A stretch of 35,360 bases of DNA from Minisyncoccia bacterium (GCA_049970635.1 JBMFMO010000002.1:1-35360); one strand, 5' to 3'; positions 517 through 35,360 are shown, counted from the stretch's first letter. A program made the numbers and translations. Notes: generated by a model from the sequence alone, not told the origin.

Positions 517-678
517 TTATCTTCTTGATTCTTTATGTTTTGTGTGTTTTTTGCACCACTTACAAAATTTTTTTAATTCAAGTTTTTTTTCACTTCCCTT
601 TTTCTTCCAAATAAAATAATTTACATGATTGCATTCACTACACTTTAATCTTATTAAATTTCTTTTTTTAACTGCCAT
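517..678 (-). CDS. rpmG: 50S ribosomal protein L33, C4 zinc-ribbon form
   Basis: Hand translation gives 53 aa: MAVKKRNLIRLKCSECNHVNYFIWKKKGSEKKLELKKFCKWCKKHTKHKESRR. This shows the typical L33 pattern with CxxC...CxxC. It is below the size cut-off of the supplied ORF track. Confidence 0.88.
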   Translation of the reverse strand: MAVKKRNLIRLKCSECNHVNYFIWKKKGSEKKLELKKFCKWCKKHTKHKESRR

Positions 679-693
679 TTTTTAATTTTAATC
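642..693. repeat. Direct repeat copy A, the functional rpmG 5' end plus upstream spacer
   Basis: The 52 nt at 642-693 match 916-966 except for one T in a homopolymer (7 T versus 6 T). Confidence 0.95.
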
Positions 694-915
694 TTATTAA
701 TATATTCTATTTAAAAAAATGATTTAAAAATCTTTGTTTTTGAATAAATTTTCATTTTAACAAGGGCCAGAAGATCAATTCATTATCTGCTGTTAATTGA
801 AGCCTTCCCCAGGGTTTGTGTTGAAAAATAATAGGTAAATCTAGATATCAAAAAATGCTTATAAAATCTTGTTTTTGTTAATTCCGACGTTTTTATTTAA
901 AATTTTTATTACAAA

Positions 916-966
916 ACTTTAATCTTATTAAATTTCTTTTTTAACTGCCATTTTTTAATTTTAATC
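916..966. repeat. Direct repeat copy B, abutting and overlapping the murA stop
   Basis: These 51 nt match 642-693. They include the last murA codon plus stop (gat taa on the minus strand), a 9-nt spacer and the first codons of rpmG. Confidence 0.95.
928..951 (-). pseudogene. Truncated, frameshifted duplicate of the rpmG start (MAVKKEI*)
   Basis: ATG at 951-949 is followed by the same codons as rpmG. One fewer A in the A-run shifts the frame into a TAA at 930-928. Confidence 0.8.
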
Positions 967-2211
967 AAATCTTTGGATTTTTGCTCCTAATTTTTTTAAT
1001 CTTTCTTCAATTTTTTCATAACCCCTATCAATTTTTTCTGCTTCTTGGATAATTGTTTCACCACTTGCAACTAATCCTGCAATTATTAATGCTATTCCAC
1101 TTCTTATATCTAAAGATTTTACCTCCTTTCCTTTTAATGGTGTTGGTCCTATAAATATTGCTCTATGTGGGTCTAAAATCTCTGCATTTGCTCCCATATA
1201 TATAAGCTCATTAACATAAGAAAATCTATTTTCATATAACCAATCATGAATTAATGTTACTCCTTTTGCTTGTGTTGCTAAAACACCAAATGGTGGCTGC
1301 ATATCTGTTGGGAATTTTGGATGAAGCCCTGTTTGAATCTTTGTACCTACAATATCTGATGGAAAAACTTTTAAAGAATTTTTTCCCAATTCATATTTTA
1401 TTTTCATTTCATCCATTAATATAAAAAGTGCATCTAAATCTTCTTCTTTTATATCTAAAATCTCTATCCTACTTCTTGTTGCTGCTGCTAATGCTACAAA
1501 TGTTCCTGTTTCAATTTGATCTGGTGGGATTTTAAATCTTATATTCCTTTTTATCTTTTCTCTTCCTTCTATTTCTAAAAAATGTGTGCCTATACCTTTT
1601 ATTTTAACTCCTAATAATTTTAAAAACAAGCATAAACTAACAACATGGGGTTCTATTGCTGCAAGCCTTATTTTAACCCTTTTAGGAATCAATGATAAAA
1701 ATAAAAGAAGGGTTTCTGTTGCTGTAACACTTATCTCTTTTAATCTTACTTCATAAGATTTCAATTTTCCAAATCTTCCTTCTAATGCTTCATTTGTTTT
1801 TATCTCGCAGCCTAAATTTTTTAATGTGTTAATGTGAACATCTATCGGCCTTGCCCCTATTATATCTCCTCCTGGTCTAAACATCTTAACTTTCTTAAAT
1901 AATGCTAACATTGGCCCCAAAAATAAAATTGATGCCCTAAGTTTTCTAAATGCATCGATCCTACAATCTTCATAATGAACCTTTTCAGAATTAATAATTA
2001 AACTATTATTTTGCCATTCAATTTCAGCACCTAAATGTTTTAATATCTCTATAATAACAAAGACATCAGCAATTTTAGGTACATTATCTAATATTGTCCT
2101 TCCCTTATTTAAAATTGATCCAACAAGTATAGGAAGTACAGCATTTTTAGAGCCTCCAACCTTTATTTTCCCAGATAATTTTTTACCACCTTCTATTAAA
2201 AAATATCCCAT
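961..2211 (-). CDS. murA: UDP-N-acetylglucosamine 1-carboxyvinyltransferase
   Basis: 416-aa ORF. N-terminal GGSKNAVLPIL, HPKFPTDMQ and IDRGYEKIEERL blocks align with E. coli MurA. The active-site loop reads RPGGDIIGARPIDVH. Confidence 0.93.
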   Translation of the reverse strand: MGYFLIEGGKKLSGKIKVGGSKNAVLPILVGSILNKGRTILDNVPKIADVFVIIEILKHLGAEIEWQNNSLIINSEKVHYEDCRIDAFRKLRASILFLGPMLALFKKVKMFRPGGDIIGARPIDVHINTLKNLGCEIKTNEALEGRFGKLKSYEVRLKEISVTATETLLLFLSLIPKRVKIRLAAIEPHVVSLCLFLKLLGVKIKGIGTHFLEIEGREKIKRNIRFKIPPDQIETGTFVALAAATRSRIEILDIKEEDLDALFILMDEMKIKYELGKNSLKVFPSDIVGTKIQTGLHPKFPTDMQPPFGVLATQAKGVTLIHDWLYENRFSYVNELIYMGANAEILDPHRAIFIGPTPLKGKEVKSLDIRSGIALIIAGLVASGETIIQEAEKIDRGYEKIEERLKKLGAKIQRFD

Positions 2212-2212
2212 C

Positions 2213-3262
2213 TTAAATAAATTTATCTAATATAAAAATTATAATACCCAAAACTGCTCCTGCGATATTCAATATCCAAAATTTAAAAACTATATTTGAT
2301 TCATGCATCCCTAATGCTTCAAAATGATGATGAATAGGTGTTGATAAAAATATCTTCTTTTTAAATATTTTTTTTGATAAAACTTGTAAAATCACAGAGC
2401 CCGATTCTAAAACAAAGATTGGTGCTATTATAGGGATTAAAAAATATGTTCCTTCTAATAAAGAAACAATTGCTATATAACTTCCTAATGCCATAGATCC
2501 TGTATCTCCCATAAAAATCTTTGCTGGATAAACATTGAACCATAAAAAGCATAAGATAGAGCCTATAACTATTGCTGATAAAGCTGTTAAGTTATAATCA
2601 CCATTTAAAAATGAAAAGACCATTAAAGCAAAGATTATTGATATAGAAACTCCAGCTAATAAACCATCAAGGCCATCTGTCTCATTTGCTGAAAAACTTA
2701 CACTTATTATATAAAAGATCAAGAATAATAGAATTAAAAAGAAATTTAAATATGTCCTTCCCAAAAATGGAATATACAAAAATCTAATCCCTAATTTAAC
2801 CATAAACCACCAGCTTACTAAAATAGAAAAAGCAAAATATATTATCAATTTATCTTTAATCCTTAAGCCTTTAAAATTTCTTATCTTTAACATTCCCAAC
2901 AAATCATCAATTAATCCAATTAAGCCACCCAAAATCATAAATCCTAATGGTAAATATGTTTCTCTTTTATTTAAAAAATTTATCCAATTTGCAAATTGTT
3001 TATCAAAAACAGATATTATTATAACCAAAAGTAAAAAGACAATAGGAGTAAGCCAAAATATTATCCCTCCCATTGTTGGTGTTCCCTCCTTCTTTTTGTG
3101 TAAACTTTGAAATATTGGGGATGATTCTTTATTTATTACTTTACTTAAATTTAATTTAAATAACAGACTTAGAAGAAAAGGAAAGATAGATAAGGAAATC
3201 AAAAAACTCACTAGCCCTAAAAAGCAGATTTTTATAATATTTAAAAATATCTCATTCGCCAT
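2213..3262 (-). CDS. mraY: Phospho-N-acetylmuramoyl-pentapeptide transferase
   Basis: 349-aa polytopic membrane ORF with IDDLLG, NETDGLDGL and C-terminal PIHHHFE motifs. Confidence 0.92.
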   Translation of the reverse strand: MANEIFLNIIKICFLGLVSFLISLSIFPFLLSLLFKLNLSKVINKESSPIFQSLHKKKEGTPTMGGIIFWLTPIVFLLLVIIISVFDKQFANWINFLNKRETYLPLGFMILGGLIGLIDDLLGMLKIRNFKGLRIKDKLIIYFAFSILVSWWFMVKLGIRFLYIPFLGRTYLNFFLILLFLIFYIISVSFSANETDGLDGLLAGVSISIIFALMVFSFLNGDYNLTALSAIVIGSILCFLWFNVYPAKIFMGDTGSMALGSYIAIVSLLEGTYFLIPIIAPIFVLESGSVILQVLSKKIFKKKIFLSTPIHHHFEALGMHESNIVFKFWILNIAGAVLGIIIFILDKFI

Positions 3263-4109
3263 AATATTTTTTCAATTTTGATAATAAGTATTCCGCATCT
3301 TTAAATCTATCTTCTGAACCAAGCAATCCTAAAAAAATTATTGGAGATTTTTTAAATTTAAGGATAAGCAAAAGACATTCTTTAGCATCATCAGTAGAAC
3401 CAGTTTTTGAACCAAGTATATAATCTTTATAATATGGAAGAAGGTAGTTCAAGTTATAAACTCTTCTATAATATGATTTTTTAATATCTACATATGGTAA
3501 AATTGAATATTTAAAAATCTCTGGATAGTTTTTTAAAATGTATTCTGAGAGTTCATATAAATCATTTAAATTTGACCTATTATTTTTATCAAGGCCCACA
3601 GGGTCAACAAAATAAGAATTTTTCAATCCTATTTCCTTTGCCCTCTCATTCATTTTATTTACAAAATTCTCAACTCCAATCTTATAAGCCAGTGCATAAC
3701 CAGCTTTATTTGATGATGCTGTTAATAAAATTTTTATCAACTCATCTCTAAAAAATTTTTCTCCTTCTACGAATCCCCCACTTTCTCCATTGTATTTTAA
3801 GATCTCTTTATTTATGATGAAGGTATCATTATCTTTATAATTTTCAAATGATATAATGGCTGTTAATAGCTTTGTCAAAGATGCTATAGGCCTTATTTCC
3901 TCTGAATTTTTTCCAAAAATTTCATCTCCATCTATCTCTTTTATTAAAACACTTTTGGCACTTATAAGATTTTTATCAATATTTAAATTTTCAATTTTCC
4001 TATAATTTAAAATTATTTCTTGATTTTCATTTTTCAAATTAAAATTTAGAATATTTGCTGGTTGGGCTATGCTTTTTAAAAATTCTAAAAATGCAATAAT
4101 TTCAAGCAT
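3252..4109 (-). CDS. D-alanyl-D-alanine carboxypeptidase (S11, PBP5-like)
   Basis: SxxK (SLTK), SxN (SSN) and KTG (KTGS) motifs occur in the correct order and spacing. The ORF overlaps the mraY start by 11 nt. Confidence 0.8.
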   Translation of the reverse strand: MLEIIAFLEFLKSIAQPANILNFNLKNENQEIILNYRKIENLNIDKNLISAKSVLIKEIDGDEIFGKNSEEIRPIASLTKLLTAIISFENYKDNDTFIINKEILKYNGESGGFVEGEKFFRDELIKILLTASSNKAGYALAYKIGVENFVNKMNERAKEIGLKNSYFVDPVGLDKNNRSNLNDLYELSEYILKNYPEIFKYSILPYVDIKKSYYRRVYNLNYLLPYYKDYILGSKTGSTDDAKECLLLILKFKKSPIIFLGLLGSEDRFKDAEYLLSKLKKYYGE

Positions 4110-4134
4110 ATTAGAATAATTTTAAAATATTTTT

Positions 4135-4503
4135 ATGAGAAGAGTAAAAAATAGATCATTAAAAGGAAAAAAATTGGAAAAGGAATTTTCTAGAATAATT
4201 CAGGATTTATTTAAATCAGCAGCAACAGAATTAAAGCCAAGGATAATTAACCTACCCAAAGATTTTTGGGGACTGTTTGATGGATTAACCTTTATCAAAT
4301 CAAAGAAAAAATTTATATTTTGGCAAATAAAAAGTAAAAGATTAACAAAGAAAGAAAGAGAAGATTTTTGGAAAAAGGCAAAAATTTTTGGAAATAAAAA
4401 AATATTAATCTTGCTCATAGAAAAAGCTAACAATGAATGGAAAATCTTTACAAATGAAAAAAGATATTATAACAATCTAAATTCTCTTAAAAATATAATT
4501 TAG
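4135..4503 (+). CDS. Hypothetical protein, possible PD-(D/E)xK nuclease fold (Hjc-like)
   Basis: 122-aa basic ORF. KGKKLEKEF ... FDGLTF ... FWQIKSK resembles the G..E / D / (E/Q)xK arrangement of Hjc-type resolvases. This is weak motif-level evidence only. Confidence 0.4.
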   Translation: MRRVKNRSLKGKKLEKEFSRIIQDLFKSAATELKPRIINLPKDFWGLFDGLTFIKSKKKFIFWQIKSKRLTKKEREDFWKKAKIFGNKKILILLIEKANNEWKIFTNEKRYYNNLNSLKNII

Positions 4504-4504
4504 T

Positions 4505-4774
4505 TTATTTTCCCCCTTTTGTTTGAACCTTCAATGATATAGCAGCACCCAATGCACCACCAATGCTTTTAAGAATCTGTCTTACAGCATTAACAGTTTG
4601 TCCTTTTCTTCCTATAACAAGAGATAAAACTTCCTGCGGTCCGTTAATTTCAACCAAAACACCTCTTTCATCAATCTTTGCATCTATATCAAGCTTATTT
4701 ACTTTTTCCTCATCAATCCACAAAGAGAAAAGTTTCTTTATCCTAGATTTTATTTCTTCTAATTTCTCTGACAT
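4505..4774 (-). CDS. khpA: KH-domain RNA-binding protein (KhpA/YlqC-like)
   Basis: 89 aa with a VIGRKGQTVNAVRQIL GxxG loop, typical of the small UPF0109 KH proteins. Confidence 0.7.
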   Translation of the reverse strand: MSEKLEEIKSRIKKLFSLWIDEEKVNKLDIDAKIDERGVLVEINGPQEVLSLVIGRKGQTVNAVRQILKSIGGALGAAISLKVQTKGGK

Positions 4775-4832
4775 AAAAATAAAAAACTTAATTATCGACC
4801 ATTTCTTTAAATTCTATTATATTTTACCATAA

Positions 4833-11587: not shown

Positions 11588-11593
11588 AGTAAC

Positions 11594-11616
11594 TCCTAAA
11601 TTTCTCCGTAGGAGGT
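11594..11616 (-). promoter_or_regulatory. rpoB Shine-Dalgarno (AGGAG) with an upstream complementary CCUCCU box
   Basis: The minus strand reads AACCTCCTACGGAGAAATTTAGGAGTTACT-ATG. CUCCU can pair either with the adjacent GGAG or with the AGGAG SD 12 nt downstream. Confidence 0.45.
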
Positions 11617-13785: not shown

Positions 13786-13821
13786 TATTTAATTATAATA
13801 AAATTTATTCTAAAACAAAAT

Positions 13822-13898
13822 CCAAAATTAAAAGCCCGGCCATATTGGCCGGGCTGCCCGCCTAAGTCTAGGTAAACCCCGCCTATGTCGAGGCGGGG
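13822..13898 (-). terminator. Double GC-rich hairpin terminator after the surface-protein gene
   Basis: Hairpin CCCCGCCT/AGGCGGGG lies at 13877-13898. Hairpin GCCCGGCC/GGCCGGGC lies at 13834-13854 and is followed on the minus strand by TTTTAATTTT. Confidence 0.8.
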
Positions 13899-13923
13899 CA
13901 GGTCTCAACAATTTCTATCTTAA

Positions 13924-15810
13924 CTATTGGATATTAACCCAATCTGTATAGTAAGAGTTTCTTACAAAATTTGCTGAATTCTCTGTTGGCTTAGTTGATG
14001 TAGTACCCCAATTTACACTATTTATCTTCAATCTTGCTAGACCCGCATATTTTGCTTGATTAGTATATACAACAGTGAGCTTAAATGTATATTGATTATC
14101 CTGTGATAAGGTTCCGTTCCATGTACCGGTTATATCATTTCCACCTTGATATACACTCATAACAGCTGATATACCAGTTGTAGTTGTGGTACCATTTGAT
14201 TGTTCCAATACAACTTCAAACAATTGGCTTGCAGTTGTAGGAGCATAAATATCACCACCTTTAGGTGTTACATTTATTTCGAATCTTGCTGTTAAGGTGC
14301 TTGTAAGAACTGCTTGAGAAGGTGCTTGATATTCTACACTTTTGCTTGCAAGACTTAACTGAGGTCCAATAGTTAAGTAGTAAAGATTATTAGAGACTGC
14401 ATTTCCAGTAGAAGTTGCTGGTCCTCCTAATGAATTCTGTCCTTGAACAGCTGTTACTGCTACAGTTACAGTTGCTGGAATAGTTGTTCCTCCTGTTAGA
14501 TCAGCAAGAATATCAAATGTTTGAGTTTGATCTTTGTTTATTGTTATCTGGTTTGGTACTAAGTTGAATGTTACAGTTGTTGTAGTTTGTGGAACAGATT
14601 GCACAGCTATTGGATTTCCACCATGAGGAGCAATATACAATGTGCTTACATTGCTAGTTGCATTAACATTAACAGTAACACCTGTTAGTCTTATATTATC
14701 ATCCTTAGCTTTTACATCAAATGTCAAAAGTGTTTGCTTAGAGGCTTTACCATCTGTAACATTACCAAATATATAACCTTCTTGAGGAGTATTAACATTT
14801 CTTGTTATTACAAATTGTGCTTGTTGAGCTAAGCTTGTTGATAAGGTAGTCTGTACTGGAATTCGGCTTGTAGGCCCAAATCTATCAACTCCTGCTTCAT
14901 CTGTTCCTCTTACATCATTTGGATCAACATATAGTGAAAAGCTTGAAGCACCTGATGGTAATGTTCCTACAATTGTTCCTCTAACAAAGATGGATTTATA
15001 TGAATTCTTTGGAACAACTACATTCAAGCCAGTTACAGGAAGATAATAATTTAGGGTTGTGTCTTGCAAAAATGTTGTAGAATCTACATTCTCAGAGAGT
15101 AAAACATTACCTTGATCATCAACTACTTCTACTTTTGATAAGAGTCTATAAGGAGCATATGTAGCATTCCATCTTAAAATCATTGATTTAACTGTTACAG
15201 CTGCATTATCTGCTCTAAATCTTAAACCAAATACATTTCCTGTTTCATTTTCTCTTAAAGAAGGAGCTGTAACAGTTGGCTCTTGTTCAACAGTTAAGAA
15301 GCCTTCTTGTGGTGCTGTTGGTGCTGTAGGAGCTGCTGGTGCTGTTGGTGCTGTAGGAGTTGCTGTCCCGCTAACTATTGCCATAATAGCAGCAATTTGT
15401 TGGTCTGTTAAACCTAATGCTTTAAGAAGTGCTTCTAGAGCTTGTGTTGAAGGAGCAGTTGTTGGTTTTTCAGGAGCACCTGCACCTGCAACTAATTTCT
15501 TTAATTGAGCAATTCCTTTTGGTCCTACACTTCTACCATTCCATGCTCCATACCATTCAGCATAGAATTTTTTAACAGCAGATACTGTTTGTGATCCATA
15601 GTATCCTGTTGCACCTGCAGGAATATCATATCCTGCTTGGATTAAACAGGCTTGAAGATTTCTAACAGCTTCACTTCTTTGGCCATATCTTACTTGTGTT
15701 AATGTATCTGGATTGCAAGTTGGTTCTGTTTGAGCATATGTTAAAGGAACTCCTAGATATGCAACTGTTGCTAGGGCTACAAAATATGTTAAGATCTTCT
15801 TCTTTTCCAT
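13924..15810 (-). CDS. Secreted cell-surface protein: PG_binding_1 domain, PT/AP linker and a long T/S/V/N/Q-rich beta region
   Basis: 628 aa. Signal peptide MEKKKILTYFVALATVAYLGVPLTYAQ. A peptidoglycan-binding block (RYGQRSEAVRNLQACLIQAGY...GYYGSQTVSAVKKFYAEW) is followed by TPTAPTAPAAPTAPTAP. The gene is visibly more GC-rich than its neighbours. Confidence 0.75.
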   Translation of the reverse strand: MEKKKILTYFVALATVAYLGVPLTYAQTEPTCNPDTLTQVRYGQRSEAVRNLQACLIQAGYDIPAGATGYYGSQTVSAVKKFYAEWYGAWNGRSVGPKGIAQLKKLVAGAGAPEKPTTAPSTQALEALLKALGLTDQQIAAIMAIVSGTATPTAPTAPAAPTAPTAPQEGFLTVEQEPTVTAPSLRENETGNVFGLRFRADNAAVTVKSMILRWNATYAPYRLLSKVEVVDDQGNVLLSENVDSTTFLQDTTLNYYLPVTGLNVVVPKNSYKSIFVRGTIVGTLPSGASSFSLYVDPNDVRGTDEAGVDRFGPTSRIPVQTTLSTSLAQQAQFVITRNVNTPQEGYIFGNVTDGKASKQTLLTFDVKAKDDNIRLTGVTVNVNATSNVSTLYIAPHGGNPIAVQSVPQTTTTVTFNLVPNQITINKDQTQTFDILADLTGGTTIPATVTVAVTAVQGQNSLGGPATSTGNAVSNNLYYLTIGPQLSLASKSVEYQAPSQAVLTSTLTARFEINVTPKGGDIYAPTTASQLFEVVLEQSNGTTTTTGISAVMSVYQGGNDITGTWNGTLSQDNQYTFKLTVVYTNQAKYAGLARLKINSVNWGTTSTKPTENSANFVRNSYYTDWVNIQ

Positions 15811-15893: not shown

Positions 15894-15908
15894 ATTAATT
15901 ACGACCTT
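15894..15908 (-). promoter_or_regulatory. Leader motif AAGGTCGTAATTAAT, 12 nt downstream of a -10 box
   Basis: Plus strand attaattacgacctt. It is identical to the 15-mer at 19160-19174 and sits at the same 12-nt distance from the -10 hexamer. Confidence 0.65.
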
Positions 15909-18900: not shown

Positions 18901-19146
18901 TTATGGTGTTGGTGGTGTTGGTGTAGCTTCTCCAGGCGCTGGTGGTGTAGGTGGTGTAGGTGGTGTTGGTGGTGTTGGTGGTGTTGGTGGTGTGACTTCT
19001 CCACCTGGAACAGTTGGAGCTGTTGGAGCTGTTGGAGCTGTTACAGCACCTCTTTGTCTAACATAATACCAAGCAATTGCACCTAAAACTATTAAAATAA
19101 TTATGACTATAATTGCAGCTGTTGTATTCTTTTTTTGACCCTCCAT
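18901..19146 (-). CDS. Small membrane-anchored Pro/Thr-rich protein
   Basis: 81 aa. An N-terminal TM anchor (AAIIVIIILIVLGAIAWYYV) is followed by (APT)3 and (PPT)n tracts. These are encoded by 9-bp tandem repeats at 18941-18994 (6 units) and 19013-19039 (3 units). The gene has its own promoter and leader motif. Confidence 0.6.
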   Translation of the reverse strand: MEGQKKNTTAAIIVIIILIVLGAIAWYYVRQRGAVTAPTAPTAPTVPGGEVTPPTPPTPPTPPTPPTPPAPGEATPTPPTP

Positions 19147-19159: not shown

Positions 19160-19174
19160 ATTAATTACGACCTT
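19160..19174 (-). promoter_or_regulatory. Leader motif AAGGTCGTAATTAAT
   Basis: Plus strand attaattacgacctt. It lies 12 nt downstream of the TACAAT -10 box and 13 nt upstream of the ATG at 19146. Confidence 0.65.
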
Positions 19175-19217: not shown

Positions 19218-19289
19218 TAGGCGGGGCAGGACTCGAACCTGCAATCTTCTGCATGTGAAGCAGATATTTTACCCTTAAACTACCCGCCC
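19218..19289 (-). tRNA. tRNA-Val (anticodon CAC)
   Basis: 72-nt cloverleaf on the minus strand. Acceptor GGGCGGG/CCCGCCT (G1:U72), anticodon stem TCTGC/GCAGA with loop TTCACAT, T arm GCAGG-TTCGAGT-CCTGC, discriminator A. The D stem is weak (GTTT/AAAT). Confidence 0.8.
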
Positions 19290-19307
19290 TATTTTAACTC
19301 AACTTTT
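19280..19307. repeat. Direct repeat copy A: tRNA-Val 5' end preceded by a relic of the last rplL codons
   Basis: The 28 nt ctacccgccctattttaactcaactttt are identical to 19493-19520. Confidence 0.95.
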
Positions 19308-19492
19308 TTATCTTTATATAAAAATTATATTAAAACATTATTGATTTTTCCGATTTTTTTATCTAATAGGGCAAGATGAGGAATAGAAAATTTTATCCTC
19401 CGCTCTAAAAGTAAAGTTTGTTCCTTAAATAAAAGTTAAAAAATGCCATTCTAATAATAATTTTTAAATAATATCCTCTATTTAAATCGAAG

Positions 19493-19520
19493 CTACCCGC
19501 CCTATTTTAACTCAACTTTT
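19493..19520. repeat. Direct repeat copy B: the real rplL 3' end followed by a relic of the tRNA-Val 5' end
   Basis: Identical 28-mer. On the minus strand it reads AAA GTT GAG TTA AAA TAG GGCGGGTAG. That is rplL ...KVELK-stop followed by the first 10 nt of tRNA-Val. Confidence 0.95.
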
Positions 19521-19873
19521 CCTCCTGCTTTTTCTATCTTTTCTTTTATCTTTTCTGCCTCACCTTTATCTATATTTTCTTTTATAGTTTGTGGTAAATT
19601 ATCAACAATATCCTTAGCTTCTTTTAGGCCAAGATTTGGATTTATCTCTCTCAGTGCTTTTATAATATTAATCTTATTTTCACCACAATCAGTTAAGATA
19701 ACATTTACTTTTTGAGGTGCTTCTTCAGTAGGAGCTGATACTGGTGCTTGTGGTGCTTGGAATATTGCACTAGAAACACCAAATTCTTTTTCTAATTCCT
19801 TTATCAATTCATTTAATTCAACGACTGTTAGGTTTTTTATCTCTTCTATAATTTTTTGAATCTTTTCGCTCAT
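19502..19873 (-). CDS. rplL: 50S ribosomal protein L7/L12
   Basis: 123 aa with an N-terminal dimerisation helix, an Ala/Pro hinge (QAPQAPVSAPTEEAP) and a C-terminal domain containing GLKEAKDIVD. Confidence 0.95.
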   Translation of the reverse strand: MSEKIQKIIEEIKNLTVVELNELIKELEKEFGVSSAIFQAPQAPVSAPTEEAPQKVNVILTDCGENKINIIKALREINPNLGLKEAKDIVDNLPQTIKENIDKGEAEKIKEKIEKAGGKVELK

Positions 19874-19878: not shown

Positions 19879-20379
19879 TTATTTCTTTATATTATTTACG
19901 ACCTTTTCAATTTTTATTATCGGAAACTTTAATGCGAAAATTAATCTGTTAAAAGATGATTTAAATGTTCCGCTAATATTTCTTAATAAATCTTCTTTTG
20001 ATGGCAATGAGCCAATTTCAATAACTTTTTTCTCATCCAAAACTTCATTATCAATCATTCCTTTTAAAACTTCTAAATTAAATTTTTTTGAATAGTCTTT
20101 TATTATCTTGAATGTATCATAATTTTCACTTGTATCAAAAACTATAGCGAAAGGAGTATTTATAGAGTCTAAAATCTTTGAGATATTTGGGTTTGCTAAT
20201 TCTATTAAAGTTTTTTTAACAACTTTTATAAAACTTTCTGCTTTTTTTAAATCTTTTCTTAATGAAAATTGAATTTCGCTATTAATTTTTTTTAAATTTA
20301 AAAAAATTATTCCTTTTGATCTTTTAAAAAGGTCTTTTAATTCCTCAATTATCTTTGCTTTTTCTTCTCTTGTTTTCAT
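19879..20379 (-). CDS. rplJ: 50S ribosomal protein L10
   Basis: 166 aa, located immediately upstream of rplL. Its length and N-terminal K/E-rich pattern are typical of L10. Confidence 0.85.
   Translation of the reverse strand: MKTREEKAKIIEELKDLFKRSKGIIFLNLKKINSEIQFSLRKDLKKAESFIKVVKKTLIELANPNISKILDSINTPFAIVFDTSENYDTFKIIKDYSKKFNLEVLKGMIDNEVLDEKKVIEIGSLPSKEDLLRNISGTFKSSFNRLIFALKFPIIKIEKVVNNIKK
19891..19905 (-). promoter_or_regulatory. Leader motif variant AAGGTCGTAAATAAT inside the rplJ 3' end, upstream of rplL
   Basis: Plus strand attatttacgacctt. It has one mismatch to the 15-mer at 15894 and 19160. It lies 17 nt upstream of the rplL ATG and 10 nt downstream of a GATAAT hexamer (19921-19916). 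Confidence 0.5.
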
Positions 20380-20533: not shown

Positions 20534-20534
20534 G

Positions 20535-22443: not shown

Positions 22444-22463
22444 CTTTGAAAATAAAAATTTTG

Positions 22464-22545
22464 TGTCGGGGGAGGGATTCGAACCCTCAAGCCTTTCGGC
22501 ACTAGGTCCTAAGCCTAGCGCGTCTACCAATTCCGCCACCCCGAC
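22464..22545 (-). tRNA. tRNA-Leu (anticodon UAG)
   Basis: 82-nt class II tRNA. Acceptor GTCGGGG/CCCCGAC, D region GCGGAATTGGTAGACGC, anticodon stem CTAGG/CCTAG with loop CTTAGGA, and a long variable arm (TGCCGAAAGGCTT). Confidence 0.9.
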
Positions 22546-22586: not shown

Positions 22587-22604
22587 TCCGATTATTAAGA
22601 ATTA

Positions 22605-22632
22605 TTTCTTATTAATTATTGAAAGCACAACT
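22605..22632. repeat. Direct repeat copy A, a relic of the MurE-like 3' end
   Basis: ttattaattattgaaagcacaact matches 22845-22868. On the minus strand it still reads ..VVLSIINKK-stop. Confidence 0.85.
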
Positions 22633-22832
22633 ATTTTTAGAGATTTTTTAGATTTTAGATTGTATATTTAAAATAATAATTAAAATAAAGAATTTTTTTC
22701 ATTTAAAAGATTTTTACTTTAAGCTTAGAGTGGATGCTTTAAAAATTTTAATTTAACCTTAAAAGAAAAAAGTTTTATTTATATTATAAAAATATAGTAA
22801 AATTCTATGTTTTTTAAATCTTAACTTTTAAA

Positions 22833-24176
22833 TTATCTCTTTTTATTAATTATTGAAAGCACAACTTCTTTTTCGTTCCATGGAATAGATTCATCTTTCA
22901 TTTCTATTGTTGGCTCTGCTCCTTTCCCAATTAAAACAACAATGTCATTTTTTTGAGCTTGATTTATTAAATATTCTATTGCTTCTTTTCTATCTTCAAT
23001 TATTTTATATGGTTTTTCAAAATCATATTCAGCTATATATTTTTTAATTCCTATTTCAATGTCTTTCATAATTTTTTCAGGATCTTCATCAAATGGATCT
23101 TCATTTGATATAACTATTAAATTACAATATCTTGCTGCTATTTCTCCTATAACAGGTCTTTTCCATTTATCTCTGTGCCCTCCTGCTGAGCCTATTAAAC
23201 ATAAAAGCCTTGATGGTTTAAATATATTCCAAATATTTTTATAAAGTTCTGAAATAGAATCTGGCGTATGTGCATAATCTATAATAACCTTAAAATTTCT
23301 TCCTTGAATTACTTCAAAGTGTCCTGGTAATGGCTCGCACTCTTTCAAAATATCTTTTACACTTTTTATAGGAATATTCAATGCTTTTAAAACACTCAAT
23401 GACGCTAAGATATTATATAAATTTTGTTTACCTATCAATTTTGTCTCATAAACTGTATCATCTTCATTTAAGATAAAATTAGTCTTTTTTTGAAACATCT
23501 TATATTTTGTAATCTGTAAATGATTGTGAATTCCTGGCTTCCCTTCTAACCCAAATGTTATTTTGTTTTCTGCTGGAAAAGATAGGAAATAATCTCCTTC
23601 AAAATCATCATAATTTACTATAATTGTTTTTCTAACATCTTGACCCTTAAAATTTTTTCTCTTAGTTTTTAATAAATTTTTAAAAAGTTTTGCCTTTGCT
23701 TTTTTATAATTTTCGAATCCTTTATGATGCTCTATATGCTCTGGATGTATATTTAAAAAAACTGCTATATCAAAATCTATAAATTTATCTCTATTTTGCA
23801 TCAAGCCCTCTGATGTAACTTCTATAACAGCTACTTCACAATTATTTTCAACTGCTGAATTTAAAAATGATTGCAAAAACCATCTCCCCGGCATTGTTAT
23901 CCTACTTAAGTTTTCTTTTTTTTCTTCTCCTATATAAAAATATTGGGATGAGCTAAGTGCTGTTTTTATTCCTAATTTATTTAATAGATAATAGATTAGA
24001 TAGCAGGTCGTTGTTTTCCCCTTTGTTCCAGTAACCCCTATCACAACAATTTTTCTACTTGGAAATTTATATCTTATTGCTCCTGTTAATGCCCAAAGAT
24101 AATGGTAAAAATTTAAAACTGGATTTGGTATATATCTTCTTATTTTTTTAAAAAAATCAATTATTTTCTCCTTCAT
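22833..24176 (-). CDS. Mur ligase family protein, MurE-like
   Basis: 447 aa. P-loop GVTGTKGKTTT, EVTSEGL, HPEHIEHH, DYAHTPDS and GGHRDKWKRP blocks are collinear with MurE. EDPF replaces the DNPR motif. Confidence 0.8.
   Translation of the reverse strand: MKEKIIDFFKKIRRYIPNPVLNFYHYLWALTGAIRYKFPSRKIVVIGVTGTKGKTTTCYLIYYLLNKLGIKTALSSSQYFYIGEEKKENLSRITMPGRWFLQSFLNSAVENNCEVAVIEVTSEGLMQNRDKFIDFDIAVFLNIHPEHIEHHKGFENYKKAKAKLFKNLLKTKRKNFKGQDVRKTIIVNYDDFEGDYFLSFPAENKITFGLEGKPGIHNHLQITKYKMFQKKTNFILNEDDTVYETKLIGKQNLYNILASLSVLKALNIPIKSVKDILKECEPLPGHFEVIQGRNFKVIIDYAHTPDSISELYKNIWNIFKPSRLLCLIGSAGGHRDKWKRPVIGEIAARYCNLIVISNEDPFDEDPEKIMKDIEIGIKKYIAEYDFEKPYKIIEDRKEAIEYLINQAQKNDIVVLIGKGAEPTIEMKDESIPWNEKEVVLSIINKKR
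22841..22868. repeat. Direct repeat copy B, the real 3' end of the MurE-like gene
   Basis: The same roughly 24-26-nt sequence, 236 nt from copy A. Confidence 0.85.
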
Positions 24177-25204: not shown

Positions 25205-25205
25205 T

Positions 25206-28098: not shown

Positions 28099-28432
28099 TT
28101 TTATAAATAATATAAGTTAAAATTGCTGGAAGAGAAATCCATAATAAAAAAATTATTAAAAAGAAAAGAAGGTTTATTAATTGTAAAAAAAGACCTATTA
28201 AGATTATTGTAAATCTTAATGGTGGTGCATAAACATATGCTGGCAAAGATCTTTCTCCATATAAAGGAGCGAAAAAATTTAAAAGATTTAATCTAATATT
28301 AAAGTTTTTTTCAATAACTAAAATGGAATCAAAAAATTTATTAGATATAAACTTTAAACCATCATAAAACCAAAATTTCAAAAATCTAAATATATCATTT
28401 AAAATTTCTTCTAAAACAAATACTATTACCAT
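28091..28432 (-). CDS. Hypothetical small membrane protein
   Basis: 113 aa with a hydrophobic C-terminal half. Its start overlaps the upstream gene's stop by 1 nt and its stop overlaps the downstream gene's start by 8 nt. Confidence 0.55.
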   Translation of the reverse strand: MVIVFVLEEILNDIFRFLKFWFYDGLKFISNKFFDSILVIEKNFNIRLNLLNFFAPLYGERSLPAYVYAPPLRFTIILIGLFLQLINLLFFLIIFLLWISLPAILTYIIYKNG

Positions 28433-31133: not shown

Positions 31134-32378
31134 CTATTTCATTAATTCTCCTGGCCCTTTCATACTTTGTTCTAATTGCGACGAGATTTGTTGGTATATA
31201 GGAACAATTACAGAAACAGCTACAAATCCAACTATTATACCTACACCCAAAATCAAGACTGGTTCTATTATTGTAATTAAATTTTTTATTAAAATTCTAA
31301 TCTCTTCTTCATAATTTTTTTCTAAAATTCTTAATATTTCACTCAAGTTTCCTGTTTGCGATGCTGTTTTTATAATACCAGAAAATATCTTAGGGAAAAT
31401 TGGTTCTTCTGATATTAATTCTCCAAAATCTCCTCCTGTCTGTATCTTTTTATAAATCCTTGTTAGGGCTGTTCTTATCCCTTCATGTTTTATAACAGAG
31501 CTTGTTAAATATAATGACTGTGCTAATGGTATTCCTCCTTCTATCAATGAGCTTAATGTAAAACAAAATGCTCTTAAATTTAATGAAAATAAAAGATTTT
31601 TTATAAAAGGAATTTTCAATCCTAATTTATAAAAAAAATCTCTTCCCCTTTTCGAAATAATAAGAAAGATTAAGATTAGAATTAAGGCTCCTAATATTAA
31701 CAAAATTGATTTAATATTTTTTCCTATAAAAATCCCTACTTTCAATATAATCTCAGAAAATTTTGGCAATTTTGTCCCCATCTCTAAAACCAATTGGGAA
31801 AGCCTTGGCATAACCAATGTACTTGCTAATATAACAACAGCAAATGCTGCTATCAAAACTATTGTTGGATAAATTAATGAAGATAAAATTTCTGATCTAA
31901 TCTCTTTTTCTTTTTCAAGATTTTCTGTCCAATCTTCAAATGTTTTTAATAAATTACCAGACATTTCACCAACCTTTATCATCTCTACCTCTATCTGTGA
32001 AAAATCTTCTGGAAATGCTTGGAATGCTTGATATATAGGATTTCCTTTTTCAACATTCAAAATCAAAAACAATATAAACTCTTTTAACTTACCTCCTTTT
32101 AAATCTTTAACAAAATTTTTTAAGCCTTCAACTGGACTTGCTCCAGATTTTAATATTAAAGAAATTGTCCTTGCTAAAAAAATCTTATTTTTTAAAGAAA
32201 TTTTAAATATGCTTTTAGATAATTTAGAAAATATATTCTCTTTAACAGGGCTAATTTTCAACACTGTTAATCCTAAACTGGATAAATACTCTATAACTTC
32301 TTCTTCTGTGTTTGCCAACAAGGTTCCCTTTTGTGTTTTACCCGAAGTATCTATAGAATTAAATTTGAAAAATTTCAT
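31134..32378 (-). CDS. pilC: Type IV pilus / T2SS platform protein (GspF/PilC family)
   Basis: 414 aa with two GspF-type repeats and 3 TM segments, directly downstream of pilB. Confidence 0.85.
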   Translation of the reverse strand: MKFFKFNSIDTSGKTQKGTLLANTEEEVIEYLSSLGLTVLKISPVKENIFSKLSKSIFKISLKNKIFLARTISLILKSGASPVEGLKNFVKDLKGGKLKEFILFLILNVEKGNPIYQAFQAFPEDFSQIEVEMIKVGEMSGNLLKTFEDWTENLEKEKEIRSEILSSLIYPTIVLIAAFAVVILASTLVMPRLSQLVLEMGTKLPKFSEIILKVGIFIGKNIKSILLILGALILILIFLIISKRGRDFFYKLGLKIPFIKNLLFSLNLRAFCFTLSSLIEGGIPLAQSLYLTSSVIKHEGIRTALTRIYKKIQTGGDFGELISEEPIFPKIFSGIIKTASQTGNLSEILRILEKNYEEEIRILIKNLITIIEPVLILGVGIIVGFVAVSVIVPIYQQISSQLEQSMKGPGELMK

Positions 32379-32379
32379 T

Positions 32380-34086
32380 TTATTCTCTTATTACTCTTAA
32401 AACTTCTTCTAATGTTGTTATTCCTACTGTAACTTTTTCTAAGCCATCCTCAAACATTGTTCTAAAATTTTTTTCCCTTAAGATATTTTTAAATTCAATA
32501 TTATTAAATTGTTTTGTCGCTAAATAATTGCTTAACTCCTCATCAACAAAAAATCCTTCAAATATTCCTGTTCTTCCCTTATAACCACTATAACCACATA
32601 ATTCACATCCTTTTCCCTTATATATAGTTTTTGGTATAGGATAATTTTTTAAATCTTTTTCTGGAACTCCAATATTCTTTAGTTGTTCTATTATAGCTTT
32701 TTCTTGGTGTGGTTTAATTTCTTCTGAATATACACAATTTAAACATATTTTTCTTACTAATCTTTGTGCCAATACCATATTTAATGTAGCTGATATAAGA
32801 TATGGAGGTACATTTAAATCTATTAATCTTGGGATAGCACTTGGTGCATCATTTGTATGCAATGTTGATAATATTAAGTGTCCTGTAAGAGCAGCTTGAA
32901 TAGCTATATCAGCTGTTTCATAATCTCTTATCTCGCCCACCATTATAATATTAGGATCTTGTCTTAAAAGTGCTCTTAAACCAGTGGCAAATGTTAACCC
33001 CAGTTTAGGATTTACCTGCATCTGATTTATTTTAGGAAGCTCATATTCTATAGGATCTTCAATTGTACATATATTTACTTCTGGTCTATTTAAAAGTTGT
33101 AATATTGTATATAATGTAGTTGTTTTACCACATCCCGTAGGGCCAGTAACCAAAATTATTCCATATGTCTTTTTAATTGCTTTTTCAGTAGCTTCTTGTA
33201 TAAATTGGTTCATTCCAAGCTCTTCTAATGATGTTGGCTTAAAAGTTGCTGCTAATAATCTTAATTCAGCTTTTTCTCCATATAAAGTTGGGATTATTGA
33301 AACCCTTATATCAAATTCATAATTTCCAAGCTTTGTTTTAAATCTTCCATCTTGTGGCCTAAAGTGTTCATCTAATTGTAAGCTTGAAAGAATTTTTACT
33401 CTTGCTATTAATGCTGGGTGCAAATATTTTGGTAATCTTAATATCTCTCTTAAAATACCATCAATTCTAAATCTTATAAGAGAAAAGTCTGAAAATATTT
33501 CAATATGAATATCTGAAGCATTCATTCCCATAGCATAAGTTAAAAGATTATCAACTATTCTTGATGCAGATAATAATTGTTCTTCTTCTGTTGTTACTGC
33601 TTTTGAAAGTTGTGATACCTCTTTCTCTAAAAGCTCTCTATATCTTTCTCTAAACAAGGCTTGATAATTTGTTAATCCATATTGAATTTCATCTGGCAGG
33701 CTTAAATATGGTTCAACTTGCATATGCGTTAAATTAGAAATTAAAGTTATGGTTTCCATATCTTTTGGATTTACCATAGCTAAATTTAATCTATCATTTT
33801 CTATCCCAAATGGTATGACTTGCTTTTCAATTGCTATCTGCTCTGGAACCAGTTTTAAGATTGAAGGTTGTATCTGAATCTTTTTTAAATTTACTCTTTT
33901 AACTCCTAAATATTCACTTAAAAGATTAGCATAATATTCTTTATCGAGCAATCTTCTGCTTAATAATAGATCTAAAGGTTCTAAATTTAAAAAGTTTGCT
34001 TCTTTTTTTACTTCTTCCCAAGTAGGTTCATCTAAAATTTGATTTTTTATTAAGAGATTTTTTAATTCTTCTTCTGAAATAATCAT
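32380..34086 (-). CDS. pilB: Type IV pilus assembly ATPase (GspE/PilB family)
   Basis: 568 aa. Walker A GPTGCGKTTT, Asp box, Walker B IIMVGEIRD, His box LSTLHTND and a tetracysteine motif (CLNC...CELC). Confidence 0.9.
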   Translation of the reverse strand: MIISEEELKNLLIKNQILDEPTWEEVKKEANFLNLEPLDLLLSRRLLDKEYYANLLSEYLGVKRVNLKKIQIQPSILKLVPEQIAIEKQVIPFGIENDRLNLAMVNPKDMETITLISNLTHMQVEPYLSLPDEIQYGLTNYQALFRERYRELLEKEVSQLSKAVTTEEEQLLSASRIVDNLLTYAMGMNASDIHIEIFSDFSLIRFRIDGILREILRLPKYLHPALIARVKILSSLQLDEHFRPQDGRFKTKLGNYEFDIRVSIIPTLYGEKAELRLLAATFKPTSLEELGMNQFIQEATEKAIKKTYGIILVTGPTGCGKTTTLYTILQLLNRPEVNICTIEDPIEYELPKINQMQVNPKLGLTFATGLRALLRQDPNIIMVGEIRDYETADIAIQAALTGHLILSTLHTNDAPSAIPRLIDLNVPPYLISATLNMVLAQRLVRKICLNCVYSEEIKPHQEKAIIEQLKNIGVPEKDLKNYPIPKTIYKGKGCELCGYSGYKGRTGIFEGFFVDEELSNYLATKQFNNIEFKNILREKNFRTMFEDGLEKVTVGITTLEEVLRVIRE

Positions 34087-34664
34087 GGCATTAAGGAAAT
34101 AAATAATCCTTTTTCAAATATTACCATATTTAATATTATAAAAAATATTGATATAAAAATCCAATAATCTTTAATTGATATTTTTTCATAAATCTCTTTA
34201 GAAATAATATGTTTAAATAATAAAAAGGAGAGGCCTGAAAAAAATATAAGAAAACTAAATGGAAAATCAACAAGCAATGTAACAGATGGAACTATTATAT
34301 ATTCTTCTTCATAAAATAAAGAGTTTTTAAATATTTTATTTAAAAATAAGATTAAAGATAGAATAAATATCCCTGAAATTATTCTCCAGATAAAATTTTT
34401 ATAAAAATGGTGGTATGAATAAGATAAAAAATAAGAAATTGGTGTATATGGGGGTAGCAAAAATTTTGATAATGGATTGTTTTGCCAGATTTTATATTGA
34501 AAGTATGATAATAAAAATATATGGATGAAAAAAATAGTTAAAAATATTAAAATTGTTAATGGAATGTACTTTTTTTTATGTTTAAGATAAAAATATAGTA
34601 AAATAAAAGATGTAATTAAACTAAGGAAATATGGAAAATATTTGTTTAAAATTATGACCATCAA
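34083..34664 (-). CDS. Hypothetical polytopic membrane protein, translationally coupled to pilB
   Basis: 193 aa with about 5-6 hydrophobic segments. Its TGA overlaps the pilB ATG (ATGA). I see no recognisable motifs. Confidence 0.5.
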   Translation of the reverse strand: MMVIILNKYFPYFLSLITSFILLYFYLKHKKKYIPLTILIFLTIFFIHIFLLSYFQYKIWQNNPLSKFLLPPYTPISYFLSYSYHHFYKNFIWRIISGIFILSLILFLNKIFKNSLFYEEEYIIVPSVTLLVDFPFSFLIFFSGLSFLLFKHIISKEIYEKISIKDYWIFISIFFIILNMVIFEKGLFISLMP

Positions 34665-35136
34665 AAAATATTATAAAGCATTTAAGGGATTTTCAATAAT
34701 AGAGATGATGGTTGTATTATTGTTTTTTGTTGGCCTAACTATTCTTTTAGCATCAAGGCCATTTTCCTTATCTTCTGAATATCAAATTGTGCAACAAGAT
34801 GCAAAAAAAATAAAACAAATTTTAGATACTGCAAGAGAAAAAGCAATAATGAATGAGAAGGGTGTAAACTGGGGAGTTTATCTTGTTGGAAGCTCTTCAA
34901 CATACTATATTTTTGCAGGAGATAATTTTAAAGAAGCTATAGAATATACTCCATATTTTTTAGATTCTTCAAATATATTTTTAGATCCTGCAAGTGGAAC
35001 AGTAAAAGAGATAGTTTTTCAAAGATATAAAGGTTATGCAACAAATACACAAATAGAAATAGGTTTAAAAAATAAAAATATAAAAGCAAAAGTAAAGATA
35101 AATTATTTCGGAAATATTGATTTTGAGATTTATTAG
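34654..35136 (+). CDS. Type IV pilin / pseudopilin with a class III signal peptide
   Basis: KAFKG|FSIIEMMVVLLFFVGLTILLA is the prepilin cleavage/N-methylation motif, with Glu at +5. I prefer the ATG at 34654 to the TTG at 34642 used by the track. Confidence 0.8.
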   Translation: MTIKKYYKAFKGFSIIEMMVVLLFFVGLTILLASRPFSLSSEYQIVQQDAKKIKQILDTAREKAIMNEKGVNWGVYLVGSSSTYYIFAGDNFKEAIEYTPYFLDSSNIFLDPASGTVKEIVFQRYKGYATNTQIEIGLKNKNIKAKVKINYFGNIDFEIY

Positions 35137-35360
35137 TTTATAATTATAAAGATGAAGAAGGTAATAATTTATACAACAAGTTATTGCCCATTTTGCCAAA
35201 TATTGATTTTGAGATTTATTAGTTTATAATTATAAAGATGAAGAAGGTAATAATTTATACAACAAGTTATTGCCCATTTTGCCAAATATTGATTTTGAGA
35301 TTTATTAGTTTATAATTATAAAGATGAAGAAGGTAATAATTTATACAACAAGTTATTGCC
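35112..35360. repeat. Perfect 86-bp tandem repeat, 2.9 or more copies, running off the window edge
   Basis: Units at 35112-35197, 35198-35283 and 35284-35360 (partial) are identical by eye. Each unit holds the last 8 codons (including stop) of the pilin gene, a 15-nt spacer and the first 46 nt of a glutaredoxin-like gene. Confidence 0.95.
35152..35229 (+). pseudogene. Truncated glutaredoxin/NrdH-like start (MKKVIIYTTSYCPFCQ...) created by the tandem repeat
   Basis: The ATG at 35152 gives MKKVIIYTTSYCPFCQ, then runs into the repeated pilin 3' end (ILILRFISL-stop). A second identical copy lies at 35238-35315. A third begins at 35324 and continues beyond the window. Confidence 0.7.

Follow-up and report, generated by a model that had tools for sequence, protein, structure and literature searches.

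Short AT-rich insertions flanked by long duplications of gene junctions in a Patescibacteria contig

A class of genomic change termed 'insertion with long target duplication' was reportedly described in 2000, by Nobusato et al. in Gene 259:99. Members of this class are bounded by variable duplications of 30–420 bp, carry no other mobility genes, and have repeats that overlap gene 3' ends (Furuta 2010, NAR, PMC2853133). For short DNAs, long target duplication was 'not yet' recognised, except for a single 21-nt case between 270-nt repeats (Lim 2012, MBE, PMC3457768). The mechanism behind the class is unsolved; its authors suggest double-strand breaks (Furuta 2010, PMC2853133; Lim 2012, PMC3457768). 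Long, variable target duplications are also documented for some insertion sequences: 8–514 bp for IS1634/IS1549, and 19–26 bp for IS1630 (PMC2266710; PMC2853133).

The DNA analysed here (the window) is one whole contig of 35,360 nt from a Parcubacteria/Patescibacteria MAG, in which genes abut and the coding share is ~92%. A preliminary description had claimed that the sequence spanning a gene junction occurs repeatedly at four places: murA-rpmG (L1), rplL-tRNA-Val (L2), the MurE-like 3' end (L3), and pilin-glutaredoxin (L4). All four were located (Table 1), and they lie far beyond chance: exact direct repeats of at least 20 nt within 30–700 nt number nine in the real window (from the four loci and from a single coding repeat of low complexity), against 0.01 in third-order Markov simulations of it. 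The gene content was as claimed, with MurA, L33, L7/L12 and a Mur ligase identified near the repeats by Pfam, and tRNA-Val and tRNA-Leu found near the duplicated junctions in ARAGORN/Rfam searches. The three largest same-strand intergenic gaps of the window are the L1–L3 events with their relics. We put at roughly 55% the probability that the events are real, independent, one-off insertions, in which about 140–215 bp of AT-rich, non-coding DNA entered a tight gene junction and about 30–70 bp of target, variable in length, was duplicated.

Table 1. Positions of the duplicated junctions, inserts and neighbouring genes in the window.
Feature	Position	Strand	Basis
rpmG (ribosomal protein L33), intact	517..678	-	gene call + Pfam
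L1 rpmG-side repeat: relic of murA last ~10 nt (GATTAA + spacer), then live rpmG start	633..693	-	
L1 insert: 214 nt, 23% GC, unique, non-coding, central GC-richer core (~764-826)	694..907	-	
L1 murA-side repeat: live murA stop, then frameshifted rpmG-start relic	908..966	-	
murA (EPSP_synthase family), intact	961..2211	-	gene call + Pfam
tRNA-Val(CAC), intact	19218..19289	-	tRNA search
L2 tRNA-side repeat: relic of rplL last ~19 nt, then live tRNA-Val 5' end	19277..19307	-	
L2 insert: 182 nt, 21% GC, unique, non-coding	19308..19489	-	
L2 rplL-side repeat: live rplL end + TAG stop, then tRNA-Val 5'-end relic	19490..19520	-	
rplL (L7/L12), intact	19502..19873	-	Pfam
tRNA-Leu(TAG), downstream neighbour of L3 relic	22463..22545	-	tRNA search
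L3 relic of MurE-like 3' end (VVLSIINKK-stop), ~55 nt upstream of tRNA-Leu	22600..22638	-	
L3 insert: 192 nt, 13.5% GC, not alignable with relatives' insert at same place	22639..22830	-	
L3 live copy: MurE-like ligase 3' end + stop (...VVLSIINKKR-stop)	22831..22873	-	
L4: exact 86-nt tandem unit, 2.9 copies, reaching contig end	35112..35360	+	

The duplications run to about 30 bp or more at each locus: 59–61 nt at L1, 31 nt at L2 (a borderline case, since 28 nt match exactly and one mismatch must be allowed to reach 31 nt), 39–43 nt at L3, and 86 nt at L4. After each event, the first copy serves the upstream gene and the second serves the downstream gene or tRNA, while the other halves are dead relics, as had been claimed. 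At L1 (period 273–274 nt), the copies match exactly over 27 and over 30 nt on either side of a 1-nt indel in a T/A run, and the distal end holds two mismatches and one more indel; the rpmG start at the murA side reads MAVKKEI-stop-stop, against the live rpmG start MAVKKRNLIRLKCSE. An 8-nt microduplication is also present within the window's murA-rpmG junction. At L2 (period 213 nt), the relic of the tRNA-Val 5' end is 9–12 nt long and carries one T>C change. Mismatches between copies gather at the repeat edges adjoining the insert. The DNA between the copies has sharp edges and is foreign to the junction; its size in L1–L3, first given as 185–222 bp, is 182–214 nt by measurement.

Empty counterparts of these junctions are found in relatives. 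When the window is aligned to a collinear relative (~85% nucleotide identity), the HSPs break cleanly at the L1 and L2 insertions, and their subject coordinates overlap there. The L1 insert is missing in two related loci (L009 and L023), where a single murA TAA-A-ATG rpmG junction is found. By alignment, the rplL TAG abuts tRNA-Val in L001 and L002; L010 and L011 fit the same empty arrangement, with tRNA-Val directly after rplL and a single-copy tRNA 5' end. A comparison with relatives for just these two empty arrangements had been suggested in the preliminary description. At L4, the repeated unit consists of the last 25 nt of a pilin-like gene with its stop, a 15-nt spacer, and the first 46 nt of the glutaredoxin gene (grx). 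Two full copies plus 77 nt are 100% identical, and the novel joint (TGCC joined to AAATATTG) has ~2 nt of microhomology only. The sequence of L017 is a single-copy pilin-12 nt-grx arrangement, and gene calls place pilin and grx 12–13 nt apart in L018, L019, L021 and L022. L4 is probably an event of the L1–L3 type without filler DNA; the copy number of its 86-nt tandem is doubtful, a doubt that affects L4 only. Because collinear relatives have single abutting junctions, the events at murA-rpmG, rplL-tRNA-Val and pilin-grx are lineage-specific insertions or duplications.

A fifth event was found in the relatives themselves. In L009/L020, the rpsG-fusA junction (R1) is duplicated over 31–50 nt, with one fuzzy boundary, around an insert of 141 nt; L023 has the empty site. 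In two other samples, the contigs break inside the rpsG-fusA repeat, which shows that such repeats do disturb assemblers.

The L3 event is older, and is common to several independent assemblies. Five loci, drawn from four separate samples in JGI and Logan assemblies, show its architecture with ordinary divergence, which includes base substitutions, one frameshift and one secondary deletion; a metagenome scan with MurE as the query returned four loci only. Empty sites were found at L1, L2, L4 and R1, and none at L3 among the related loci compared. Within the window, the L3 copies share a 24-nt exact core and differ by two indels and two mismatches (period 234 nt), so that the repeat is both longer and more degenerate than the approximately 26 nt first reported. 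In relatives, it reaches about 70 nt. The left repeat boundary is nearly equal in the window and in the L001 clade (period 234 versus 232 nt), yet the inserts are unrelated and the repeat sequences lineage-specific. This boundary match points either to a hotspot that was hit twice, or to gene conversion combined with insert replacement. Among the relatives compared, L3 relics decay over time: the relic is deleted in L011, and loss of the stop lets the relic extend the protein, giving 466-aa rather than 453-aa MurE forms. The relics have probably also been homogenised against the live copy through gene conversion. L014 shows local block replacement within its L3 insert. Between L001 and L011, the L3 insert is 96% identical; mobility and selection were rejected as reasons for this, since the high-identity tract is longer, running from the MurE 3' half to infB, and recombination between lineages explains it better. 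The idea that the L3 insert is inverted in one lineage relative to another was also discarded, the match being one of low complexity only.

Two properties of the inserts stand out. Firstly, their sizes are narrow (141–214 nt), and each of the L1–L3 inserts has, as first reported, one GC-richer core, placed centrally (relative position 0.47–0.58; nominal P of 0.016, 0.03 and 0.12, respectively). Together, narrow size and central core hint at a source more specific than random filler. Secondly, all five inserts contain at least two stops in each of the six frames; they are not random genome fragments, because any 200-nt piece of a 92%-coding genome has an open frame.

The preliminary description could not align the inserts to each other by eye, and indeed no similarity beyond AT-rich noise was detected in either orientation. 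A search for terminal inverted repeats returned weak AT-rich pairs only. The preliminary description had also raised the possibility that the inserts are repeated elements; sensitive BLAST of the window inserts against the window and 15 related loci (L001–L015; ~190 kb) gave no significant second copy, and the repeat sequences have no further copies in the window and related loci. The absence of transposase, integrase and reverse transcriptase genes noted for the window was borne out among its called genes, and extends to those of the fetched related loci. Of the proposal that a recurrent insertion or duplication mechanism is at work, the recurrence stands, given lineage-specific events, empty sites and the fifth event; one suggested agent, a small non-autonomous element, is not supported, in view of the lack of shared sequence, of terminal inverted repeats and of a second copy in the sequences searched. 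Searches for a donor gave one chance Mycobacterium match in genome_contigs (a collection without this MAG), zero matches for two patterns in viral_contigs, none by BLAST of the inserts against phages and plasmids, and none for peptides from open stretches within the L1 and L2 inserts. The protein collection holds no relative of the window closer than ~90% amino acid identity.

Several candidate origins were tried and set aside. Patchwork templating from the window was rejected on the grounds that simulated inserts give exact matches at least as long. The inserts match no RNA gene in Rfam or ARAGORN (folding z-scores –1.4 to +2.1), and counts of promoter and terminator motifs do not rise above those of shuffles. 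A larger tandem duplication, since decayed, would leave similarity outside the repeats, where in-register identity is ~30–40%, equal to background. Four-fold sites of the window and a relative are 65% identical, versus 44% by chance, and a duplicate made after their split should thus still be at least ~75% identical. Finally, the differences between copies are indels and T/C or G/T changes rather than adenine-specific ones, which, with no reverse transcriptase, argues against a diversity-generating retroelement (TR/VR).

The best-fitting class is 'insertion with long target duplication'. One way in which such an event could arise is as follows: (i) the two ends of a DNA piece, or a template-switched nascent strand on its return, would be joined to the target at two staggered positions, (ii) these positions would lie on the two sister copies at a fork, or on a break with long overhangs that are filled in, and (iii) the stretch between the two joining points would end up on both sides of the insert. 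The insert itself would come from filler capture or a template switch. Selection would then favour duplications that span a gene boundary, the only ones to leave both genes whole; because the genome is ~92% coding and its genes abut, survivors would be expected at gene junctions. Several observations weigh against this reading: the searches found no donor, the inserts are rich in stops and narrow in size, with a central core in L1–L3, the left repeat edges favour A-runs, the L3 boundary match needs an explanation of its own, and L1 and L2 are each known from a single assembly.

An unlikely alternative splits the event in two: a short tandem duplication of the junction first creates a neutral spot in a dense genome, into which unrelated DNA is inserted, or grows, later. 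L4 provides an example of the filler-free tandem duplication that the first step calls for, and the murA-rpmG microduplication and the block replacement in L014 also speak for it. Set against these, two rare events are required at each of four loci, no short-filler intermediate was seen among the loci compared, and the L1 and L2 relics are nearly perfect, yet 182–214 nt of unrelated DNA is already present.

We think it still less probable that the inserts are MITE-like non-autonomous elements, mobilised in trans by a transposase whose target duplications are long and variable, like those of IS1634/IS1549 and IS1630. The target duplications documented for those elements, the narrow sizes and central core of the inserts, and the occurrence of several events within one small region all agree with this idea. 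The inserts, however, show no significant similarity to each other and have inverted repeats neither in common nor at their ends; the ~190 kb of window and related loci contain no second copy, the called genes of the fetched loci include no transposase, and viral contigs, phages and plasmids gave no match.

The repeat edges bear on a further proposal. In four or five of six events, an A-run on the coding strand begins at the left edge (P about 0.003, allowing slack; a post hoc figure), with a polarity that follows gene direction, including at L4, on the other strand. Such edges would be expected of RNA-templated insertion (target-primed reverse transcription or similar), in which the template strand is nicked at a T-run that primes on the A-rich 3' end of an RNA, and the duplication results from a second nick made some variable distance away; variable target duplication length is typical of LINE-type target-primed reverse transcription. 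This too we regard as very unlikely. Neither the window nor the called genes of related loci include a reverse transcriptase, and the inserts lack an A-tail and match neither RNA genes nor transcript-like sequence; in addition, one R1 boundary is fuzzy and the edge statistic is post hoc.

A systematic assembly artefact had been offered as the other general explanation. In the form of strain chimeras or loops in the de Bruijn graph, it has slightly less in its favour again. The perfect repeat at the contig end (L4) and the rpsG-fusA contigs broken inside the repeat in two other samples are what it would produce. For L1–L3 it is rejected: the copies differ by indels and mismatches, the unique inserts must come from reads, and the L3 structure is reproduced across samples and assemblies. 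Even at L4, a joint with ~2 nt of microhomology offers too little for a k-mer mis-join. Least probable of all are remnants of site-specific integrative elements with since-deleted interiors, whose attL/attR cores restored the gene ends; although repeats of 30–70 nt beside tRNA genes or gene 3' ends resemble att duplications (PMC2853133), five targets would require five different elements, no integrase is present in the window or related loci, tRNA-Val is duplicated at its 5' rather than its 3' end, and the nearly perfect L1 and L2 repeats leave no time for kilobases to erode to ~200 nt.

The A-run bias at the left edges is not predicted by random staggered joining. It is conceivable, if improbable, that a dedicated insertion process operates in Patescibacteria, RNA-templated or nuclease-driven, which places AT-rich modules of ~150–200 bp, GC-richer at their core and without conserved sequence, at A-run-initiated sites, duplicating 30–70 bp of target. 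If so, it would be one of the main routes by which these streamlined genomes gain intergenic DNA and, possibly, new promoters. CPR/Patescibacteria have almost no intergenic DNA, and the origin of new spacers between abutting essential genes is not known. On the practical side, such repeats break metagenome assemblies at gene junctions and can give spurious protein tails, as in the 466-aa MurE forms.

Returning to our preferred reading, of one-off insertions with long target duplication, four described systems invite comparison. The IS1634/IS1549 and IS1630 elements likewise duplicate their targets as long, variable direct repeats, but they measure 1–2 kb, carry a transposase, have conserved ends and are present in many copies; nothing of this is seen in the window or related loci. 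Att duplications at tRNA genes and gene 3' ends are also direct repeats of tens of nucleotides that rebuild an interrupted gene; the lack of an integrase, the ~200 bp inserts, the different target each time and the tRNA 5' end set the present cases apart. Template switching at replication forks (FoSTeS/MMBIR) gives head-to-tail tandem duplications with filler DNA at the novel joint. The present events likewise repeat a short segment in tandem and have unrelated DNA at the joint, with L4 as the filler-free form, and their mismatches gather at the repeat edges beside the insert; templated filler should, however, match a donor, and none was found in the 35-kb window and related loci (~190 kb). 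The closest likeness is to the class of Nobusato and Furuta: an insert lies between variable direct repeats of at least 30 bp that both correspond to the same single-copy sequence of a related genome (here at L1, L2, L4 and R1); the repeats are unique and often lie over a gene 3' end; and transposase, integrase and inverted repeats are absent (here, from the window and related loci). Published cargo consists of kilobase-sized restriction-modification or other genes, whereas the present inserts hold no gene set and are 141–214 bp of non-coding DNA, which rules out a role for cargo-encoded enzymes such as restriction enzymes. A further difference is that several gene junctions within 35 kb have been hit, in a Patescibacteria lineage. 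The pattern is a rarely described kind of insertion, here with short non-coding cargo and recurrence at gene junctions.

The preliminary description reported four gene junctions that occur as long direct repeats, and all four of these repeats were found in the window, flanked by the genes it had named (see table). By third-order Markov simulations, 0.01 comparable repeats are expected per window by chance. At L1 (murA/rpmG), L2 (rplL/tRNA-Val) and L3 (the MurE-like 3' end upstream of tRNA-Leu), the first copy holds the end of the upstream gene, the second copy holds the start of the downstream gene or tRNA, and the remaining half of each copy is dead. The relic of the rpmG start on the murA side of L1 is frameshifted and reads MAVKKEI followed by two stops; the MurE relic at L3 reads VVLSIINKK-stop, and the live gene now ends VVLSIINKKR-stop. 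Mismatches between copies concentrate at the edge adjacent to the insert (i.e., the AT-rich segment between the two copies). The 35,360-nt window is an entire contig of an NCBI MAG; it has a GC content of 27% and is ~92% coding, with genes packed end to end, mostly on the minus strand, and its proteins have their closest named relatives in Parcubacteria/Patescibacteria.

Coordinates of duplicated junctions and neighbouring features in the window and in related loci (three-digit handles)
Feature	Locus	Positions	Description
L1, murA/rpmG	window	633-693 vs 908-966	exact blocks of 27 and 30 nt with a 1-nt run-length difference between; few far-end changes
L2, rplL/tRNA-Val	window	19277-19307 vs 19490-19520	31 nt, one mismatch
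L3, MurE-like 3' end	window	22600-22638 vs 22831-22873	exact core of 24 nt; ~40 nt with two indels
L4, pilin/glutaredoxin	window	35112-35360	exact 86-nt unit, 2.9 copies, up to contig end
Extra 8 nt in L1	window	683-690, 956-963	AATTAAAA; relatives GATTAAAATG
MurE tail	L001 vs L014	11306-11401 vs 1520-1576	466 aa with the tail vs 453 aa without
rpsG/fusA repeat at contig start	L024	1-10
rpsG/fusA repeat at contig start	L025	1-20
rpmG/tRNA-Phe word arrays	window	255-463, 466-510, 61-120
rpmG/tRNA-Phe word arrays	L009	17575-17850
rpmG/tRNA-Phe word arrays	L020	16910-17100
rpmG/tRNA-Phe word arrays	L023	7915-8030, 8860-8930
Toxin-like gene pair	L023	8157-8507
Hairpins around toxin-like pair	L023	8040-8058, 8570-8589	AACGACATCGAATGTCGT, AACGACATCTGATGTCGTT
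Leader-like word	window, minus strand	15899-15908, 19165-19174, 19896-19905	AAGGTCGTAA
9-nt periodic repeats	window	15301-15363, 18904-19050	TGGTGCTGT / TGGTGGTGT
PG-binding/Wzy_C interval	L009	2718-4582	with NTP_transf_2 gene
PG-binding/Wzy_C interval	L015	10779-11494	with NTP_transf_2 and HEPN genes
PG-binding/Wzy_C interval	window	13786-15211	without NTP_transf_2 and HEPN genes
Aspartyl-tRNA synthetase	L017	5084-6509	five short ORFs

The window was compared with a 246-kb JGI contig (loci L001, L009, L020 and L021) and with several other assemblies; the relatives are collinear with it at ~85% nucleotide and ~90% amino-acid identity. Both in the 246-kb relative and in L023, the murA TAA is followed by a single base and then the rpmG ATG. 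The first base of tRNA-Val abuts the rplL TAG in L001 and L002, and tRNA-Val directly follows rplL in L010 and L011. Between the pilin-like and glutaredoxin genes, relatives have a single-copy gap of 12-13 nt. The BLAST alignment of window and relative is interrupted precisely at L1 and L2, where the subject coordinates overlap by 31-43 nt; such an overlap reads as the signature of a target duplication. From the single junctions of the relatives and the BLAST breaks, it follows that L1, L2 and L4 arose in the lineage of the window. Compared with relatives, both L1 copies are 8 nt longer in the spacer that separates the end of murA from the rpmG ATG; this microduplication is older than the L1 event.

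L3 is older than L1, L2 and L4. The MurE 3'-end duplication measures ~67-70 nt in five loci (L001, L002, L010, L014 and L015) from four samples; its period in relatives is 232 nt (237 nt in L010), and the copies differ by substitutions. In most of the five loci, an A-run within the duplicated end of MurE is 1 nt shorter, a loss that removes the stop and so alters the annotated protein by adding a 13-residue low-complexity tail. The relic has disappeared from L011 through a ~84-nt deletion. The window L3 has nearly the same left boundary as the relatives and a period of 234 nt, carries window-specific bases in both copies of the repeat, and encloses an insert unrelated to theirs. This state requires either (i) a hotspot that was struck twice, or (ii) gene conversion between the copies together with replacement of the insert.

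One further event of the same architecture emerged from a scan of the fetched loci: in the 246-kb relative, a 141-nt insert lies between two copies of the junction formed by the rpsG stop and the fusA start, which match exactly over 31 nt and, if mismatches are allowed, over ~50 nt. The rpsG-fusA gap in L023 is 3 nt. Contigs from two other samples (L024 and L025) start within this junction repeat, suggesting that the junction is also repeated or polymorphic in those assemblies, and that the repeat causes assembly breaks there.

The inserts show no similarity to each other in either orientation, and they contain no terminal inverted repeats, no significant RNA structure and no Rfam or tRNA matches; promoter- and terminator-like sites are not enriched in them. 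Every reading frame of each insert is interrupted by two or more stops, whereas any 200-nt stretch of coding DNA from this genome contains an open frame. No counterpart of the examined inserts was detected in the window or related loci (~190 kb), among viral contigs and phage/plasmid records, or in a protein collection searched at the peptide level. Insert lengths fall in a narrow range (141-214 nt), and each of the three inserts in the window is richer in GC in a central core. Read on the coding strand, an A-run usually begins at the left edge of the repeat (a post hoc observation). The inserts are not what is left of the centre of a larger, since decayed tandem duplication: beyond the repeat edges, in-register identity is no higher than background. 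Window and relative are 65% identical at 4-fold sites, vs 44% by chance, and a duplicate formed after their split should therefore remain ~75% identical or more.

The data show that DNA foreign to each site was inserted there and that the target was duplicated in the process. We infer that these events could have been produced by joining at two staggered positions, on sister copies or across a break whose overhangs were long; template switching out and back would be an alternative to such joining. Where 92% of the genome is coding, selection would subsequently retain only insertions with a duplication that reaches across a gene boundary. Three other models, namely a two-step origin, a trans-mobilised element and an RNA-templated process, are less probable than staggered joining or template switching. 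Purely random filler as the source of the inserts is disfavoured by their non-coding nature, narrow size range and central core, and by the bias in repeat boundaries. The systematic assembly artefact entertained in the preliminary description is rejected for L1-L3, the doubt at L4 concerning copy number only.

Several neighbouring features were also recorded. Arrays of short GC-containing words fill the rpmG/tRNA-Phe spacer. In the window, nine exact copies of CGCGGAT (0.1 expected) and variants occur on one strand only, in an array with an 83-nt super-period that begins right at the tRNA-Phe 3' end and is followed by four ATTCGTG; relatives carry other words in the same spacer (CACGAAT; CCGAATA/CCGGATA; ATCCGCG/ATCTGCG). 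The cargo at this spacer is a periplasmic-binding-protein gene in L009 and a YafQ-like toxin pair in L023, and the window has none. The L023 pair lies between near-identical hairpins, which look like a cassette boundary. Elsewhere in the window, three copies of AAGGTCGTAA (0 expected) precede start codons, namely those of a 628-aa PG-binding ORF, an 81-aa ORF and rplL. Two of the three lie within a 60-nt conserved block downstream of a TTGCAT-17-TACAAT-like promoter, and the word may belong to a leader or operator that these genes share. Within the 628-aa ORF and the 81-aa ORF are 9-nt periodic repeats that differ in length from those of relatives and appear to encode low-complexity (proline/threonine-type) stretches. 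An NTP_transf_2 nucleotidyltransferase gene lies between the PG-binding and Wzy_C genes of L009 and L015, joined in L015 by a HEPN gene; the window lacks both, and the C-terminal part of its PG-binding protein differs. The aspartyl-tRNA synthetase gene of L017 is broken up, reflecting either a pseudogene or assembly frameshift errors.

Among known systems, IS1634/IS1549 are true insertion sequences that generate long, variable duplications of 8-514 bp (PMC2266710), and IS1630 generates duplications of 19-26 bp (PMC2853133); the defining features of these elements are missing from the window events. The class termed 'insertion with long target duplication' is recognised by repeats that are longer than about 30 bp, variable in length, unique in the genome and alignable to a single stretch in a related genome, with frequent overlap of a gene 3' end and without further mobility functions (PMC2853133). 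This class was defined on restriction-modification gene cargo; according to a 2012 paper, one 21-nt case aside, its recognition among short DNAs was still to come (PMC3457768). Because the architecture seen in the window and fetched loci agrees with the published description, we place the window events in this class. They differ from its published members in carrying short, non-coding cargo, in recurring at gene junctions and in their Patescibacteria host, and are a short-cargo variant of it.
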